DNA of 64,000 nucleotides, taken from contig JAUYMS010000046.1 of the NCBI GenBank assembly GCA_030698625.1, positions 56,348-120,347 of the forward strand, read 5' to 3'. The notes beneath the pieces were generated by a model. It was not told the DNA's origin and did no database searches. It saw nothing but the letters and a program-made list of their open reading frames with translations. This DNA is from Candidatus Omnitrophota bacterium. GTDB taxonomy: Bacteria; Omnitrophota; Omnitrophia; Omnitrophales; Aquincolibacteriaceae. Every line of letters begins with the position of its first letter. Positions within the stretch are counted from its first letter, which is position 1. The position numbers were made by a program, and so were the translations under genes. This document shows, piece after piece, positions 4,440 to 64,000 of this stretch.

Positions 4440-5432
4440 CTATTTCCCTCCCGGATCGTTGCTGAAGATGCTGTAACGCCGCGACTGATAGTCCGGGTTC
4501 TGGAGATACCATTCGACGGTTTCACGAATAGCGTTCTCAAGTGAGTACTTCGGTTCGAACCCGATTTGATCGCGAGCCTTTGTCGTATCCATCAGGCGTA
4601 TTTTATTGCCGGCAGGTTTGGACGCGTCCCACTCAAGTTTCGGAGATTGCGGCGCATACCTGCAAATAGTTTCAGCGACCTGTTTGATTGAGACTCCGAC
4701 CCCGCTGCCGAGGTTAAGCGGATCGCAAGGGGCAGCGGCCTCCATGGCCAGCATCATGCCGCGTGCGCAGTCCTTGCTATAAATGAAATCACGCACGGGC
4801 GTCCCGTCGCCCCAGACCACGAGGGGATCTTCTCCCGCACAAGCCCTGGCAATGAGCGCCGGAATAACCATAGCCGTATTAGGATTGAAGTTGTCATAAG
4901 GGCCGTAAATGTTAGCGGGGCGGACAATGACCGCTTGATAATCATATTGTTCCAGATAGGCTTCGCACTGCAATTCTCCGAAGCGCTTCGCCCAGGCCCC
5001 GTACCAGTCCGACGGGTGAGGGGGCTTGTCCCAAACCTCGCTTTCCTTAAAAATCTCCGCATCGGGGTAGACTCCGATCGTGCTCGTGAATAGGTACCGA
5101 GCCGCACCGCATTCGCGTGCGGCCTTTAACATGTGGAGGTTGATAAAGGCATTCCCTTCGAGAAAACGGGCTCCCTGGCTGCGGCCGACCCCGACCCCGC
5201 CCTTAATTCCTGCGAGATGGAAGATGAAATCGACTCCTTCGCATGCCTTCAGGCATGCTTCCCACCGAGTTAAGTCGACTTTCAAAAACTCAGCGCCTTC
5301 GGGAAGGCCGAAGGGATTATCGAGAGAGGCGATTCGCACGCGGGCTCCAGCCTCAGCAAGCATGTTGACCAGCGGGGTTCCGATCATTCCCGTGCCGCCG
5401 GTCACCAAGACCTTCTTGTTTTTGAAGTACAT
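4440..5432 (-). CDS. GDP-L-fucose synthase (Fcl)/GDP-colitose synthase (ColC)-like SDR epimerase-reductase
   Basis: VLVTGGTGMIG Rossmann motif; NIYGPYDNFNPNTAMVIPALI ... VWGDGTPVRDFIY closely parallels Fcl motifs. Confidence 0.65.
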   Translation of the reverse strand: MYFKNKKVLVTGGTGMIGTPLVNMLAEAGARVRIASLDNPFGLPEGAEFLKVDLTRWEACLKACEGVDFIFHLAGIKGGVGVGRSQGARFLEGNAFINLHMLKAARECGAARYLFTSTIGVYPDAEIFKESEVWDKPPHPSDWYGAWAKRFGELQCEAYLEQYDYQAVIVRPANIYGPYDNFNPNTAMVIPALIARACAGEDPLVVWGDGTPVRDFIYSKDCARGMMLAMEAAAPCDPLNLGSGVGVSIKQVAETICRYAPQSPKLEWDASKPAGNKIRLMDTTKARDQIGFEPKYSLENAIRETVEWYLQNPDYQSRRYSIFSNDPGGK

Positions 5433-57622: not shown

Positions 57623-57624
57623 AC

Positions 57625-57665
57625 AAAAAAAAGGAGCTACGATTGTAGTCGTAACTCCCTTTCTC
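57625..57665. terminator. Bidirectional rho-independent terminator (A8 / ggagctacga-ttgtag-tcgtaactcc / CTTTCTC)
   Basis: Hairpin with U8 on the minus transcript (terminates the tRNA) and a T-rich tail on the plus side after the flavoprotein stop. Confidence 0.6.
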
Positions 57666-57670
57666 GGATT

Positions 57671-57940
57671 TGGTAGCGGGGCCAGGATTTGAACCTGGGA
57701 CCTTTGGGTTATGCTTACCACTAAGGCTTTCGCCTCCTCCTAAGAGTTTGTGGTCTGGACTATACCTTCACCCTAATGGGTGTCTGCCGTCTAGTCTCTA
57801 CACCTTCCTGTCTTTCGACAGGCTTGGCTCGGTATTACCATTTAACAGGCTTCACCGAGTTTGACAAATCATCTTTCCCGCCATTCCTGGCGGGACGCCC
57901 ACATTGAGCCCAACGAGCTACCGAGCTGCTCCACCCCGCG
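57671..57940 (-). tRNA. tRNA-Met(CAU), initiator-like, interrupted by a group I intron (exons 57907-57940 and 57671-57713)
   Basis: Joined exons give a 77-nt cloverleaf: C1xU72 mismatch, A73, CCA encoded, A11:U24, three G:C pairs at 29-31:39-41, anticodon loop CUCAUAA, T-loop TTCAAAT. Confidence 0.75.
57714..57906 (-). ncRNA. Group I (IC3-like) self-splicing intron in the tRNA anticodon loop, about 193 nt, no ORF
   Basis: Contains GUCAAACUCGG (P3-like), CCGAGCCAAGCC, and AAGGUGUAGAGACUAGACGGCA (J6/7-P7 core) matching, from memory, the Azoarcus tRNA-Ile and cyanobacterial tRNA-fMet/tRNA-Leu introns; 5' exon ends in U, intron ends in G; P2 hairpin CCCGCCA-GGAA-UGGCGGG. Confidence 0.75.
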
Positions 57941-57951
57941 ATGAGTAGAGC

Positions 57952-57980
57952 ATTCTATTACATAACCCCTTACCGTTCAA
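57952..57980 (-). promoter_or_regulatory. Promoter of the tRNA gene (TTGAAC-17-TAGAAT)
   Basis: Minus-strand hexamers with 17-nt spacing ending about 11 nt upstream of tRNA position 1. Confidence 0.45.
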
Positions 57981-58105
57981 TGGCTTTATTAAAGCGGTTT
58001 TCTCATGCTACAATGCGTCGTATTTACAGCAAATATGGGTTGTGGCGGACACATAAAGACACGGTGAAACCGGTTTACCCTCTTACATAAAAGGAGGGTT
58101 TTTTT

Positions 58106-59689
58106 ATGGATACAAAACTTAAAGCCGACATAGCCGAAACAGCCGTTACCGCGAAATTGTTACGGCGTGGTCTTGCAGTACTCCGACCGGTTGGAGATCG
58201 CCTATCTTATGACCTCGCTGTTGATACAGGCTACGGCCGAATCCTTCGCTTACAAGTGAAAAGTGCATGGAAGCAGCAAGGCGCCTACCTTGTTGATAAC
58301 AGGCGGACCAAAACGAATCGTCGTAGGATGCTGCGCACAGCCTATTGTCGAGAGGATTTTGATTTTGCGGCGCTCTATATTGATGACCTGGACATTACTT
58401 ATATCATGCCCGTAGACGTGTTCACTACATACAAGAGCGGCATTTCCTTAGTAGAAGGGAACAAGCGCCAAAGGAAACCGCGCTCGTACGCATATCGGGA
58501 AGCATGGCATCTGCTGGTTGCCGCACAACCCAAAGGTCGCAGGTTAATCACGGTAGGTGCTGACCCCGTGGACACCTCCGGAGCTACCCCAAATTCCCTC
58601 CGGCGGGAAATTGGAGCGATTTTTATGGTTAAATTTCTTCTTGTGACGGCAGGCCTTCTCTTTCCTGCCGTCGCTTGGGCCGAGCCGGTGACGGACCCCG
58701 GCACTGAAATCCGCGAGCTCATTATTCATGAGCATCCCGATACGAATTATCGCCCGCTCCTGCCCGATTTGATGCATGCCTTCGAGCGGCCGGGCCGCGC
58801 GGAGCCTGTTGGTTGGGCGATCGTGGCGGCAAGTGAGCAGAATGCGGCTGTCCTGCGCGAACGTTTGCGGTACCGGGGCCTCGATGCCGTTACGGGCCGT
58901 ACGCGGTTTCTCATTGATCCGGAGCGTTTCGATACGTGGGCCCGGGATGTTTATGAGATAGAAGGCCTGCGGTCGGTGCCGGGCGGTGATATTACCGCCG
59001 ACGATGCCTTTGTTTATTTGGGTGAAAAATCTGAAGCGGCCGCGGACCATCTCGAAAAAGTGTTTCAGAGAAAAGTCCTGATCCTTCCCGGCGAAGACGC
59101 GCATCAGGACCGTTACCACATGCCGCTCGGGGTGGTGAACGGCCGGCGAACAAGTCTGCTGGCTGACCCGCTGAGCGCTTTGGAAATTCTCATGGGCCTT
59201 AGCGAGGAAGAAAAGCTTCAGCTCATCGCATATTACATCAAACATTATGACTGGCAGGACCCCGCCGAAACCCGCCGGCAATTTGAATCCTTTTTTACCA
59301 TGAGCCCGCGCGACCTCGATAATTACCGCACAAGCCCTTACGTTAAATCTCTCGATAAAGTCGAAGCGGTGCTGCGTGCGCAGGGTATTCAGACCGTACG
59401 TATCCCCACGCTTCACCGCGACATCATCAAAGAGGCGCCGCTCCCGCTCGGGCTTTATTACATCAACCTGGTGCAGGACACCTACCGCGACCTCGACGGC
59501 GGTATCCGCCGCAAAGCGGTACTGGCGAGCTACGGCATAGGGCCGCTCGATACCGAAGCGCGCCGCAGGCTCGAAGCGCTCGGCCATTTTCAGGAGATCC
59601 GCATGGTTGAAGCGGTGCCCGAAGGTTTCCGCGGCGGGGGAATACGCTGTCTTTTGCGGGTGGCCGGTGATAAAATAACGACCCAATGA
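58106..59689 (+). CDS. Composite ORF: N-terminal PD-(D/E)xK (Hjc-like) nuclease-fold domain; internal signal-peptide-like segment; C-terminal guanidino-group-modifying-enzyme superfamily domain (agmatine deiminase/amidinotransferase-like)
   Basis: N-terminus AETAVTAKLLRRGLAVLRP...YDLAV...LRLQVKS; internal MVKFLLVTAGLLFPAVAWA at aa 174; C-terminus GFRGGGIRCLL resembles the GGGxxHC catalytic end of that superfamily. May be two genes or a fusion. Confidence 0.4.
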   Translation: MDTKLKADIAETAVTAKLLRRGLAVLRPVGDRLSYDLAVDTGYGRILRLQVKSAWKQQGAYLVDNRRTKTNRRRMLRTAYCREDFDFAALYIDDLDITYIMPVDVFTTYKSGISLVEGNKRQRKPRSYAYREAWHLLVAAQPKGRRLITVGADPVDTSGATPNSLRREIGAIFMVKFLLVTAGLLFPAVAWAEPVTDPGTEIRELIIHEHPDTNYRPLLPDLMHAFERPGRAEPVGWAIVAASEQNAAVLRERLRYRGLDAVTGRTRFLIDPERFDTWARDVYEIEGLRSVPGGDITADDAFVYLGEKSEAAADHLEKVFQRKVLILPGEDAHQDRYHMPLGVVNGRRTSLLADPLSALEILMGLSEEEKLQLIAYYIKHYDWQDPAETRRQFESFFTMSPRDLDNYRTSPYVKSLDKVEAVLRAQGIQTVRIPTLHRDIIKEAPLPLGLYYINLVQDTYRDLDGGIRRKAVLASYGIGPLDTEARRRLEALGHFQEIRMVEAVPEGFRGGGIRCLLRVAGDKITTQ

Positions 59690-60912
59690 ATAAACTCCTC
59701 TTCCTCCTCACGGCAATGTTACTTATCACTCCGGTGCCCGCGCTTCGTGCCGATGATCCGCCTGCGGGCGGCGGCAACCGCGACCAAGGTACGGTCGGCG
59801 GCGATGCCGGCGGTGCGCGCCTCGGCGAGAGTGACCGGGGAATCGAGAATGCCCTTCGCGGGCAGGGAATTATTAGCGGTGGCGGCACAAATACCGGCAC
59901 CAATGCCGGTGCGACCGTAGGTACAAGCGGGCCGGGGCAAACGAGCACGCGCACCGAAACCACCGACAGCGGCGGGACGCGCACCGTCATAACGGGTCCG
60001 GACGGCAGCCGCACGGTCACCGAGACCGGCCGCGGTGTTGAGCCTGCCACGCTATCCATAACATTCAACAAGGACGGGAGCGTCGTTTCGCAAAACAGTC
60101 AGCATACCAACGGTACGGTTGATACCATGACTTATAACCCCGCAACCGGCGTGCGGGAAAGCACCTCGGTTCAGCCCGACGGCGCCACGACGCGCTCCGT
60201 TTCGCAAAGGGACGGCAGCGGGGTTATTACGCAGACGGGTTTTAATCCGAACACCCAGGTGACCGAAGAAGATGCCCAGGGCCACGTCACCGAAACCACC
60301 TCGCGACCCGACGGCACCAAAACGGTTGTGACCTTTACGCGCATTCAGGGCGACCCGTATGCCACACGCGGCGAGCCGGTGACGCACACCACCACCGATT
60401 ACAATGCCGCCGGCAAGCCCACACGCCAGGTGCGTGAGACCAACGAACGATACGGCAGGGGTTATCGTCAGACGCGCCGGGAAGTGACCGAATACGACAG
60501 CCGGGGCAAACCGAAAAAAACGACCGTAAGCCAGCCGCGGCAGGGCTACGGCGATTTGCTTGTGCGCGAAGAAGTGGAGTATTGGCACAACGGTTTTCGG
60601 AAAGTGATCAAGCGCCGTGATGAAAGCGGCAGGATCACCGAAGTCTATTATTATGACCATCTCGGACACCTGACGCGAAGCTCCATTCAGCCCGGGCACA
60701 CCGCCGGCGCAGAGCCGACTACCGGAACATTTTTCCAACCGCAAAATGATAACCGCCAGTCAGCCGTGCCGACTCAGCGCGAAGATGCCTTTGCCCGCGC
60801 CGACAGTGCCGGCTCCAGCACGCCGGGGCTCGATGGCCTTGGCGGGACGCTCGCGCGCGAGCTCGTCAACCGCCCCGTTCCCGACCGCCGCGAAAGCAAC
60901 GAAAACGAGTAG
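59686..60912 (+). CDS. Secreted Gly/Thr-rich hypothetical protein
   Basis: Signal peptide MNKLLFLLTAMLLITPVPALRA; low-complexity G/T-rich body; one YD-repeat-like motif (EVYYYDHLGHLT). Confidence 0.45.
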   Translation: MNKLLFLLTAMLLITPVPALRADDPPAGGGNRDQGTVGGDAGGARLGESDRGIENALRGQGIISGGGTNTGTNAGATVGTSGPGQTSTRTETTDSGGTRTVITGPDGSRTVTETGRGVEPATLSITFNKDGSVVSQNSQHTNGTVDTMTYNPATGVRESTSVQPDGATTRSVSQRDGSGVITQTGFNPNTQVTEEDAQGHVTETTSRPDGTKTVVTFTRIQGDPYATRGEPVTHTTTDYNAAGKPTRQVRETNERYGRGYRQTRREVTEYDSRGKPKKTTVSQPRQGYGDLLVREEVEYWHNGFRKVIKRRDESGRITEVYYYDHLGHLTRSSIQPGHTAGAEPTTGTFFQPQNDNRQSAVPTQREDAFARADSAGSSTPGLDGLGGTLARELVNRPVPDRRESNENE

Positions 60913-61351: not shown

Positions 61352-62262
61352 AAGCGCTGCCAGCCCGTTCCTTCGTGACCGAAGGAAAATTTTTCCGGAT
61401 ATAAAATCTCGGCAAAAATTTCCAGGGACTCTACGAGACGCGGTCCGGGCCGGTTAAAATACTGATTGCCGTCGGTCAAAAACACCCGCCCCGTTCGTAC
61501 GGCCTTTAATTTCTTCCACTCTGCTTTTTGAGTTACGGCCGCCATTTCAAGGCGCGACTTCTCGATGCCCCAGCCGCAGGGAAGCACGACAATCACATCG
61601 GGGTCCTGCCCGACTAACTCTTCCCATTTCATCCAGGGGGAATGTTCACCCGGTCTGCCGAAAAGATCTTCGGCGCCGAGCAACGCCAGTAATTCCGGAA
61701 TCCAATTCCCGCCGGCCATGAGCGGGTCGAGCCATTCGAGGCAGGCGACCCTAGGGTGTCCGCCGATCGATTTCGCTTTTTGGGAGATGGCCTGCATTCT
61801 TTCGCGGTAGCTATTGATTAAGTCGTCGCCTCTGTCTTTTACTTTCAGGGCGCCGGCGATTCGCCGAATGCCTGACCACACATCTTCTAGATTGTTCGGA
61901 AGCAAAGTCACGATCTCGGGTTTCGCGTCATCGGCCCAATCGCAGACGGCGTTCTCGACGTCTTTCAGGCTGACTGCGCAGACCTCACAGTGGTCCTGAG
62001 TGATAATGACATTGGGTTCAAGGGCTTTTAAAGCCTTGGCGTCGATCCGGTAAACCGAGCCGGAATCGCTTACGGTTTCCTTAACGCGGTCATCGATTTC
62101 CCTGCTTGTTCCTTCGATGTTGATTTTTGGTTCCGAGCAAGTCGGCAGGCTTTTGACTACAGCCGGAAAATCGCATTCATGGGAACGACCCACGAGTTGG
62201 TCGCCGCAACCTAAGGCGTGAACAATCTCGGTACTGCTGGGGATCAGGGAAACAATGCGCAT
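61348..62262 (-). CDS. Class III periplasmic-binding-protein fold (BtuF/FhuD-like cobalamin/siderophore binding protein), no signal peptide
   Basis: MRIVSLIPSSTEIVHALG N-terminus and overall BtuF-like pattern, 304 aa. Confidence 0.55.
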   Translation of the reverse strand: MRIVSLIPSSTEIVHALGCGDQLVGRSHECDFPAVVKSLPTCSEPKINIEGTSREIDDRVKETVSDSGSVYRIDAKALKALEPNVIITQDHCEVCAVSLKDVENAVCDWADDAKPEIVTLLPNNLEDVWSGIRRIAGALKVKDRGDDLINSYRERMQAISQKAKSIGGHPRVACLEWLDPLMAGGNWIPELLALLGAEDLFGRPGEHSPWMKWEELVGQDPDVIVVLPCGWGIEKSRLEMAAVTQKAEWKKLKAVRTGRVFLTDGNQYFNRPGPRLVESLEIFAEILYPEKFSFGHEGTGWQRF

Positions 62263-62336
62263 TGGAGAATTCTACCCGTTCTGCCGTCCGGTGGCTACCG
62301 GTAAAAAAGGCGAAAGTGTGTTATAATCAGGGCATC

Positions 62337-62567
62337 ATGAGCGACGGCAGTATACCCGCGGTAAGTCAAGATTGTTGGAAGCCGTGTAATATTTGCAAGA
62401 AGGCAATAGCCTTTCAAGCCGTCTATTACCTCTGCTCCGTTAGTACCTGCCGCAGTAAACGCACCGGCCTCGTCTTCTGCTCTACGTCCTGTTATGACGG
62501 CCACCTTGGTTTTGCCCGTCACCGCAGCTCCTACTGTGAAGAAGAAGTTGCCCCCGTCAAGTTTTAA
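62337..62567 (+). CDS. Small Cys-rich hypothetical protein (possible metal-binding)
   Basis: CWKPCNICKK...CSVSTC...CSTSCYDGH...C; start within the 62262 track ORF. Confidence 0.3.
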   Translation: MSDGSIPAVSQDCWKPCNICKKAIAFQAVYYLCSVSTCRSKRTGLVFCSTSCYDGHLGFARHRSSYCEEEVAPVKF

Positions 62568-62570
62568 CCG

Positions 62571-63083
62571 CTAACCGGCCGCCCGTATTTGGGCAAGGCT
62601 CAGGTAGGCGGGTGACTTTGTAATGAAGCTATTTTTGAGGCCTTTACTGTATGTTGTGAAGCTGATGTAAGGGTAATCATCCGCGTGTTTAACTAGGCCG
62701 GCTCTTAACGGATTTCTCTCAATATACCTTGCGCATTCCAATAGATATTCCTCCCTGTCAACGGACTTACTCCTGTACATTCTTTCGAACGTCGCTCCGG
62801 AAATCCTGTATTCTTTACTGTGGTAATAAGCGTACTTTCTCTTGAGAAAATGAGAGAAACGAATGAGATTCTCAATGGCAGTCGTAAAAACAAGCATGTG
62901 GACATGGTTCGTCATAAGGCAATAGTGGTAAATGGCAACCTGAGAAGCCGAAGCGTGTTCTCGGGTCAGGTTCAAGAAAAAGTCGTAGTCTCTAGGGCGA
63001 TGGAAAAGATCTTTGCGGTTAATGCCGCGTGCTATCCAGTGATAGATTCCAGACGGACTAATTTGGCGTTTTTTTCGCGGCAT
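62571..63083 (-). CDS. IS200/IS605-like Y1 (HUH) transposase, REP-associated tyrosine transposase (RAYT) type
   Basis: HUH motif HVHMLV, YHWIARGINR, catalytic-Tyr region; start trimmed to MPRKKRQ; no terminal repeats found. Confidence 0.65.
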   Translation of the reverse strand: MPRKKRQISPSGIYHWIARGINRKDLFHRPRDYDFFLNLTREHASASQVAIYHYCLMTNHVHMLVFTTAIENLIRFSHFLKRKYAYYHSKEYRISGATFERMYRSKSVDREEYLLECARYIERNPLRAGLVKHADDYPYISFTTYSKGLKNSFITKSPAYLSLAQIRAAG

Positions 63084-63249
63084 AAGAGAGGCCACAAGTC
63101 GCCTTGCGAGAGGAGAGCTTTCGAGGTGTGTCAGAGAAGCAGAGGCAGTATAATGCAATGGTCAGAAGACGGCGTCCGGAAAATTTCTTATTTGCGTATA
63201 TTCCAAGATAGTCATATTATGTGAGCAGCTATCATTTTATGGAGGTTCT

Positions 63250-63603
63250 ATGACAAAGGTACAGAGAGTCAGCTCAGATGATATGGTTTTCAAGATTAAG
63301 GCAGATTTCCTGAGAGCGCTTTCGCATCCGTTACGTCTCAAAATTATAGATCGCTTAAGACATGCTGAATCCAGTGTCGGAAGCTTGGGAAAAGAGCTGG
63401 GCGTTCACCAGTCGACATTATCCAAACATTTAACGGCTTTACGCGAAATCGGTATATTGCAGGCACGGCAAGAAAAAACGTCCGTCTTCTATGCAATAAC
63501 GGACCAAGACTTATTTCTTATATTACGGCCTATTTCGGAGCTTCTTCGCAAAAAATTTAAGAGAAGCAACAATTTGCTCAATAAATTGGCAAAAGGTTTA
63601 TGA
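63250..63603 (+). CDS. ArsR/SmtB family metalloregulatory transcription factor
   Basis: LRALSHPLRLKIIDRL ... LGVHQSTLSKHLTALREIG winged HTH. Confidence 0.7.
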   Translation: MTKVQRVSSDDMVFKIKADFLRALSHPLRLKIIDRLRHAESSVGSLGKELGVHQSTLSKHLTALREIGILQARQEKTSVFYAITDQDLFLILRPISELLRKKFKRSNNLLNKLAKGL

Positions 63604-63648
63604 AGTAATGAGTATTCTGGAATAGGACTGTCGAAAGGAGGGAATCCT

Positions 63649-63864
63649 ATGGTGACCTGGATTGGTTTATGTGCAGGCGAGGTGTGGAAATATCTTGAAA
63701 CTCATGAGGGCTATTGTCCTGTTGAAAAAGTTATTAATGACATCGATGCGCCTGAGCAATCTGTATTAATGGCAATTGGCTGGCTAGCACGTGAAGGCCA
63801 TATTCTGCTTCGTGGAGCCCCACCTGACTATCGAATCATTCTCAACATAAAAAAGACAACTTAG
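63649..63864 (+). CDS. Hypothetical small protein
   Basis: 71-aa ORF with RBS GGAGGGAA upstream; no motif recognised. Confidence 0.35.
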   Translation: MVTWIGLCAGEVWKYLETHEGYCPVEKVINDIDAPEQSVLMAIGWLAREGHILLRGAPPDYRIILNIKKTT

Positions 63865-63913
63865 CGAAGACTGTCGCATAAACAGAGGATAGGCGGAAGC
63901 CGCCATAATAAAA

Positions 63914-64000
63914 AATGTTTAAACCAAAATTATTGACTTGTCTTAAAGATTATTCATTACCGCAGTTCCGATCAGATGTGATTGCCGGACTCATCGTTGG
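63914..64000 (+). CDS. SulP family anion transporter, N-terminal fragment (continues past window end)
   Basis: MFKPKLLTCLKDYSLPQFRSDVIAGLIV matches the conserved SulP N-terminus. Confidence 0.5.

Follow-up and report, generated by a model that had tools for sequence, protein, structure and literature searches.

A small group I intron in a probable initiator tRNA gene of Candidatus Omnitrophota, with a free-standing homing endonuclease gene and a fossil exon beside it

The window analysed here, a stretch of 64,000 nt from a Candidatus Omnitrophota MAG, contains on its minus strand a tRNA gene interrupted by an intron and, starting 166 nt upstream of this gene on the opposite strand and outside the intron, an endonuclease gene of the I-Ssp6803I type (Table 1). 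When introns were allowed, ARAGORN returned tRNA-Met(cat) c[57671,57940] with an intron of 193 nt, also in a run over the whole window, in agreement with a preliminary description of the locus that had recognized an initiator-like tRNA-Met(CAU) gene and had placed its two exons around a 193-nt insert at the same positions. Default ARAGORN did not call the split gene, and an Rfam scan of the whole window at gathering thresholds gave no matches at all. Read along the minus strand from 57940 to 57671, the order is CGCGGGGTGGAGCAGCTCGGTAGCTCGTTGGGCT, the insert and CATAACCCAAAGGTCCCAGGTTCAAATCCTGGCCCCGCTACCA; both exons are perfect and, when joined, make 77 nt with a canonical cloverleaf, the predicted spliced junction being GGGCU|CAUAACCC. 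The spliced sequence carries the initiator set, namely the C1xU72 mismatch, A11:U24, the three pairs G29-31:C39-41 and the anticodon CAU, and relatives retain the 1:72 mismatch through differing bases (C-U, U-U or A-A). The gene is flanked by a promoter-like match and a terminator-like hairpin, and the eno-ftsB-tRNA-fMet neighbourhood is common to the window and its Omnitrophota relatives, to whose enolases that of the window is 77% identical; since this synteny is kept, a resident initiator gene is favoured over a stray copy. The locus is thus very probably the initiator tRNA-Met gene of the MAG, with an IC3 group I intron between positions 33 and 34.

Table 1. Positions of the features described in the text (window coordinates unless a locus handle is given; nt numbers in the first column are intron positions unless stated otherwise)
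Feature	Position	Strand	Basis or remark
Split tRNA-fMet(CAU) gene: exon 1, intron, exon 2 with encoded CCA	57671..57940	-	ARAGORN with introns allowed
Exon 1, 34 nt (tRNA nt 1-33): acceptor 5' strand, D arm, anticodon stem 5' strand, C32, U33	57907..57940	-	
Exon 2, 43 nt (C34 to CCA, CCA encoded)	57671..57713	-	
Sigma-70-like promoter TTGAAC-17-TAGAAT, 11 nt upstream of tRNA nt 1	57952..57980	-	Consensus match only
Intrinsic-terminator-like hairpin followed by U8, just past CCA	57624..57665	-	-21.7 kcal/mol, z -5.7
193-nt ORF-less group I (IC3-type) intron	57714..57906	-	Rfam RF00028, covariation, fold energy
Internal guide sequence U6 G7 G8 G9 C10, just before P2	57897..57901	-	
P2 hairpin, nt 12-31, GGAA (GNRA) tetraloop cap	57876..57895	-	Fold; in the family 9/9 P2 pairs compensatory (majority register)
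P3 5' strand, nt 39-44, UUUGUC	57863..57868	-	Pairs with nt 119-124; 100% of cells paired; 4/6 pairs compensatory
P4-P5, nt 48-79, J4/5 GAA, J5/4 AAU	57828..57859	-	Rfam alignment, covariation, fold
P6/P6a, nt 80-104, GAAA loop	57803..57827	-	Inner stem 6/6 pairs compensatory
P7 5' strand: G109, bulged A110, G111-A115	57792..57798	-	Pairs with nt 145-150; 100% of cells paired; nearly invariant
P3 3' strand, nt 119-124, GGCAGA	57783..57788	-	Covariation
P8 hairpin, nt 125-138	57769..57782	-	5/5 pairs compensatory
P7 3' strand, nt 145-150, UAGUCC	57757..57762	-	Covariation
P9 three-way module, nt 153-190: P9 ACCAC/GUGGU, P9a CUC-UUAG-GAG, P9b GAGGC-GAAA-GCCUU	57717..57754	-	
Terminal guanosine, omega G193	57714..57714	-	G in 77/77 sequences
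Hairpin holding the endonuclease Shine-Dalgarno sequence, then T7, directly before ATG	58077..58105	+	
Free-standing I-Ssp6803I-type PD-(D/E)XK homing endonuclease domain, aa 1-139, divergent from the tRNA gene	58106..58522	+	PF11645
Fossil of tRNA-fMet exon 2, CACAACCCAAAGGTCGCAGGTT, abutting the end of the endonuclease domain	58524..58545	+	20/22 to exon 2 nt 1-22
527-aa ORF: endonuclease domain reading stop-free through the exon-2 fossil into the neighbouring gene	58106..59689	+	
Copies of the tRNA-fMet 3' end in relatives	L007:4888-4909; L012:961-981, 1174-1194, 1341-1361; L017:3248-3268; L037:4894-4911; L060:5855-5886		

Some further observations concern tRNA genes and the composition of the window. 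Among the 76 related loci with a split tRNA-fMet gene, 31 (for example L019, L028 and L035) encode initiator tRNAs with A29:U41 (exon ...AAGGCU / CAUAACCUU), so that the base of the anticodon stem has two G:C pairs where the canonical number is three, and several of these loci have the guide sequence GGGU in place of GGGC. Downstream of the gene in the loci of five relatives lie copies of the tRNA-fMet 3' end, 18-32 nt long and 94-100% identical, which look like the attachment-site repeats left by integrating elements. A 94-nt 'tRNA-Arg'(tcg) at 4481-4574 on the plus strand, the sole call of ARAGORN in its default mode, has weak stems and coincides with no Rfam tRNA, and is probably a false positive. 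The G+C content falls to 0.457 at 62001-64000, compared with 0.50-0.59 elsewhere in the window.

Three placements of the intron restore the anticodon loop CUCAUAA, and of these only U33|C34 leaves U at the end of the 5' exon and G at the end of the intron. The split ...GGCU | C...G | CAUAACC is common to all 76 homologous loci, and U33 at position -1 together with G as the last intron nucleotide is found in every one of the 77 sequences formed by these loci and the window. The preliminary description had chosen this placement, which stands, but had regarded it as unusual and uncertain, which it is not, since 33/34 is the canonical intron site of tRNA-fMet (PMC13011429). It had also seen no convincing pairing of an internal guide sequence with the splice site; such a P1 exists between G31 C32 U33|C1 A2 and U6 G7 G8 G9 C10, with the pairs G31-C10, C32-G9, U33.G8 (the splice-site wobble), C1-G7 and A2-U6. 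The four core pairs of P1 are compatible with the sequence of all 76 loci and G7-G9 are invariant in the alignment; as the tRNA dictates the exon bases and the pairs do not vary, this evidence is one of consistency and not of covariation. The P1 loop of the window intron is AUG alone, and its A3 U4 G5 (57902-57904) could form a 3-bp P10 with C34 A35 U36 of exon 2.

In a local Rfam scan, the insert matched Intron_gpI (RF00028) over the full length of the model with 46.4 bits and an E value of 1.1e-10, which is 3.6 bits short of the gathering score of 50 bits. The score is lowered because the model alignment misplaces P1 and P2 onto the tRNA exon, and, as it lay under the gathering score, the fold was tested independently by covariation. 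For this, 66 distinct homologous intron cores were aligned with MAFFT, and the structure counted was based on the sequence of the window together with the Rfam alignment, comprising P2, P3, P4, P5, P6/6a, P7, P8, P9 and P9b with the P3/P7 pseudoknot. Across the 66 cores, standard pairs filled 96.8% of 3,487 cells, compared with 24-40% when the 3' partners were slid by 1-3 columns; compensatory changes, with both sides altered, occurred in 38 of the 53 pairs, and none of 500 shuffles reached any of the observed covariation measures. P2, P3, P6a, P8, P9 and P9b covary, P7 is nearly invariant and most of P4 is invariant. P2 was counted in the majority register, MAFFT setting the window and L017 in a register 2 nt shorter, and the P2 of the window is described from its own fold. 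Folded alone, the intron has an MFE of -74.5 kcal/mol (z -6.6), and this fold recovers P2, P3, P4, P5, P6a, P8 and the P9 three-way module. Together, these results strongly support a group I fold.

At 193 nt, the intron is the smallest of the set examined, and we assign it to subgroup IC3 from homologues that are so classed in PMC13011429. The Azoarcus/cyanobacterial-type group I intron that had been recognized at the outset is thereby borne out, by the Rfam match, by the covariation and by the identity to published introns given below, and the two core words that had been cited for it, GUCAAACUCGG and AAGGUGUAGAGACUAGACGGCA, are both present in the insert. A covariance model, named at that time as a check, does match, with a score below gathering, and does not reject the fold. 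What had been set apart as a 46-nt extension before the terminal G is the ordinary P9/P9a/P9b module of IC3 tRNA introns.

The endonuclease domain matches PF11645 with 134 bits (cut-off 26.1; E 4.8e-39) and is 60% identical to I-Ssp6803I of PDB entry 2OST (E 7e-48). The 139-aa domain is free of frameshifts and internal stops and retains each of the 46 residues found invariant across 26 homologues. Its Shine-Dalgarno sequence AAGGAGG (58091-58097) is strong, stands 8 nt from the ATG and lies inside a hairpin, which may keep the expression of the endonuclease low. Burying the ribosome site is a known means of holding homing endonucleases at low levels. The C-terminal part of the 527-aa ORF into which the domain reads is homologous to stand-alone proteins of 400-466 aa (P0002-P0004), and the neighbouring gene probably has its own start at M174 (58625), with a signal-peptide-like segment that suggests a secreted protein. 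The loss of the stop and the in-frame fusion could reflect decay or an assembly artefact. As a query for homologues, the full 527-aa ORF gave four hits, and the N-terminal domain alone was used to find relatives. The endonuclease domain, the C-terminal part and the next ORF all lack a model in NCBIfam. This next ORF encodes 408 aa (59686-60912, plus strand), shares its first 4 nt with the stop end of the fused ORF and has no match in Pfam or NCBIfam.

The fossil of exon 2 starts exactly at C34 and is the sole other match to exon 2 in the window, with none expected from 100 shuffles. This start and the homology to I-Ssp6803I together point to the intron insertion site as the target of the endonuclease, that is, the anticodon region of an intron-less tRNA-fMet gene, GCTCGTTGGGCTCATAACCCAAAGGTC. 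An exon-1 fossil was searched for upstream of the endonuclease gene and was not found. We considered 58524-58545 as a remnant of P2 and rejected this, the agreement with the P2 of L003 being about 10/16, as against 20/22 with exon 2 and 21/22 with the exon 2 of relatives. The nucleotides that follow the fossil, 58546-58585, may hold the degenerate rest of exon 2, with the motifs AATC and CTGACCCCG. In one related locus, L026, a perfect 40-nt copy of exon 2 (4460-4499) stands 27 nt after a free-standing endonuclease gene, itself 215 nt downstream of an intron-containing tRNA-fMet gene. The position of the fossil behind the endonuclease gene indicates that this gene once lay at site 33/34 of a tRNA-fMet gene of which the ribozyme core is gone. 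A plausible origin would be the duplication of an ORF-containing allele, after which the ORF was lost from one copy, giving the working tRNA gene, and the ribozyme from the other, giving the endonuclease gene. A deletion of the ribozyme core at a microhomology in this second gene copy may account for the scar in the window; more speculatively, the odd C at fossil position 3 would fit a junction formed between the P2 5' strand (...CTCAACC) and ...G|CATAACC.

Relatives were reached through the endonuclease, which gave 80 loci (of 430 endonuclease loci) from GTDB species representatives, among which the genome of the window is not included. The tRNA-fMet gene is split at 33/34 in 76 of the 80, and these fall into two layouts. 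In 47 of the 76 the endonuclease gene is inside the intron, which then measures 617-683 nt. The start codon stands 3-8 nt past the 5' splice site, and the ORF overlaps the guide sequence and P2 at its 3' end, so that the intron-encoded gene occupies the P1 loop. In the other 29 it is outside an ORF-less intron of 195-325 nt, usually 60-100 nt past the tRNA terminator; 17 of these loci are cyanobacterial (mostly Nostocales), six belong to Omnitrophota, five to Bacteroidota and one to Anaerolineales. Among the related loci, only L017, also from Omnitrophota, shares the divergent layout of the window, and its intron is the closest relative of the window intron (82%). The ORF-less introns resemble precise deletions of the ORF, as in CAATG|TGGGC of the window and CAAGTG|GGC of L045. 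In Nostocales, the free-standing endonuclease copies group in a single clade, and their median dN/dS of 0.08, a sign of strong purifying selection, marks them as maintained genes. Every free-standing copy from Omnitrophota, including that of the window, has intron-encoded copies as its nearest neighbours, which implies repeated transitions between the two layouts.

Group I introns at this site are a catalogued family. Among the 4,934 complete bacterial genomes surveyed by Nakagawa et al. (2026), group I introns interrupted 333 tRNA genes from 18 phyla; subgroup IC accounted for 81% of them, and 33/34 in tRNA-fMet was given as one of the well-characterized insertion sites (PMC13011429). The statement of the preliminary description that such introns are rare and patchy therefore needs tempering as regards rarity. 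Table S5 of the survey has IC3 introns at 33/34 of tRNA-fMet from at least Bacteroidota, Desulfobacterota, Nitrospirota and Omnitrophota (GCF_004102945.1, 252 nt), the introns of Cyanobacteriota tRNA genes are mainly at 33/34, 34/35 and 36/37, and a figure legend places a PD-(D/E)XK endonuclease in the tRNA-fMet introns of Cyanobacteriota (PMC13011429). The window intron is 81-86% identical over aligned positions to several published IC3 tRNA introns. With the Omnitrophota entry as tabulated it shares the site, the subgroup architecture and the phylum, at 85% identity over 185 aligned positions, and its P9 module is also seen in published IC3 tRNA introns (PMC13011429). Compared with the catalogued fMet 33/34 IC3 introns of the table, it is shorter (193 versus 245-305 nt), its P1 loop, P5, P8 and P9a being minimal. 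Family, site and phylum were all known before, and what the window intron adds is one more member of unusually small size; its novelty had at first been overrated, the survey already placing the family in several phyla, Omnitrophota included. The endonuclease genes recorded by the survey are all inside introns, whereas that of the window is outside.

The group I intron in the tRNA-fMet gene of Synechocystis sp. PCC 6803, with I-Ssp6803I, is a close parallel in host gene and enzyme (Biniszkiewicz 1994; Bonocora and Shub 2001; PDB 2OST). Both systems have an initiator tRNA as the host gene, the site 33/34 and the same endonuclease family. The Synechocystis intron, compared here by its features, has 655 nt with a 150-aa ORF inside, whereas the window intron has 193 nt and no ORF, and the endonuclease gene of the window is outside the intron, divergent and fused to a neighbouring ORF. 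The IC3 intron of the Azoarcus sp. BH72 tRNA-Ile(CAU), which we take to be a small ribozyme with the same core words and with GNRA-capped P2 and P9, is a further relative. It lies at 36/37 in tRNA-Ile2, with P1 CAU/GUG and a simpler P9. The window intron differs from it in its site and host, 33/34 of tRNA-fMet, the comparison being drawn from general knowledge and the shared Rfam model.

As to the arrangement of the two genes, collaborative homing, in which an intron moves in trans, is described for the cyanophage psbA intron with F-CphI and the phage T4 nrdB intron with mobE (PMC3984707, PMC2790892). The locus has the corresponding layout, in that a free-standing endonuclease gene adjoins an ORF-less intron in the gene that it is predicted to target, by homology at the intron insertion site. 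The phage cases concern protein-coding genes and other endonuclease families, whereas the window offers a tRNA gene on a bacterial chromosome and an endonuclease gene that carries a fossil exon tracing its origin to the target site itself. The split arrangement of intron and endonuclease with a fossil exon, of which no description was found in the literature searched, is moderately new, and the intron itself modestly so.

The intact core under structural selection, the promoter-like match, the terminator-like hairpin and the conserved genomic position lead us to infer that the intron splices itself. The tRNA gene would be transcribed from its own promoter, and the intron would fold into P1-P9 with the P3/P7 pseudoknot, the GNRA loops L2 and L9b probably clamping the core as in Azoarcus. 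The guide UGGGC would pair with G31 C32 U33|C1 A2, so that the 5' splice site would carry the U33.G8 wobble, and an exogenous guanosine bound in P7, which we take from general knowledge of group I introns to be the guanosine-binding helix (G site), would attack after U33. The terminal G193 would then replace this guanosine, and U33 would attack the G193|C34 bond, releasing the intron and leaving the 7-nt anticodon loop CUCAUAA. In this scheme the intron would be the ribozyme half of a mobile element of which the endonuclease half lies outside. The endonuclease, if active, would cut intron-less tRNA-fMet alleles, repair from the window locus would copy the intron in trans ('collaborative homing'), and the intron, by interrupting the target site, would shield the resident gene.

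Whether the endonuclease still drives homing in trans or is a fossil is a question of roughly even odds. There is a considerable probability, somewhat below one half, that the gene is dead and has no present role, the intron being immobile and inherited vertically: the stop has been lost, the ORF reads through the exon-2 fossil into another gene, and the Shine-Dalgarno sequence is buried in a terminator-like hairpin. The fusion in particular weakens the case for active trans homing. Against this, the domain has neither frameshift nor internal stop and keeps all of the invariant residues, and its Shine-Dalgarno sequence is strong and well spaced; free-standing copies elsewhere are under strong purifying selection, and a buried ribosome site is, from general knowledge of homing endonucleases, a device for low expression.

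It is very unlikely that the tRNA gene is a pseudogene, with a decayed, non-splicing remnant of an intron, and that a second, intron-less initiator gene elsewhere does the work. Such a reading could draw on the Rfam score under gathering, on the decay signs of the adjacent endonuclease ORF and on the view of the genome, which spans 64 kb, but the catalytic core has all of its helices and junctions intact, in agreement with a family on which structural selection is clear, both exons are perfect, a promoter and a terminator of its own are predicted, and the position is syntenic with that of the initiator gene in relatives; moreover, the endonuclease, if active, would cut and convert an intron-less copy in the same cell. 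That the tRNA is instead a tRNA-Ile2 (CAU read as lysidine) or an elongator tRNA-Met can be set aside as highly improbable. The anticodon CAU is common to all three, and the automatic caller of the survey labelled some members Ile2 or Met before homology correction, but the mismatch at 1:72, which relatives keep through different bases, A11:U24 and the three G:C pairs of the anticodon stem are the bacterial initiator set, and the survey assigns such genes to tRNA-fMet by the best intron-less homologue (PMC13011429). The reading that we prefer, an initiator tRNA gene with a splicing IC3 intron and the endonuclease half of the element outside it, has in our estimate a probability of about 0.88.

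The initiator tRNA gene described here escapes both default ARAGORN and Rfam at gathering scores, and a MAG of this kind would be scored as being without tRNA-fMet. The size of the intron, 193 nt, may interest ribozyme engineers. The intron adds one member to a catalogued family, and its neighbourhood, with an apparently intact free-standing endonuclease gene and a fossil exon, is the more useful part of the locus. The 47 loci with the endonuclease gene inside the intron and the 29 with the gene outside offer a comparative system for the entry of homing endonuclease genes into group I introns and their exit from them, a question that has so far been addressed mainly with two phage examples. 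We put forward tentatively, and regard as doubtful on balance, the wider proposal that tRNA-fMet introns and the I-Ssp6803I family form a natural series of mobile introns on bacterial chromosomes, some composite and some split, in which the endonuclease gene would have moved repeatedly between the P1 loop and a free-standing site, the exon-2 fossil would be a datable scar of such a move, and the enzyme would still drive the homing of the ORF-less intron in trans. If this is true, it would be the first case of collaborative homing outside the protein-coding genes of phages.
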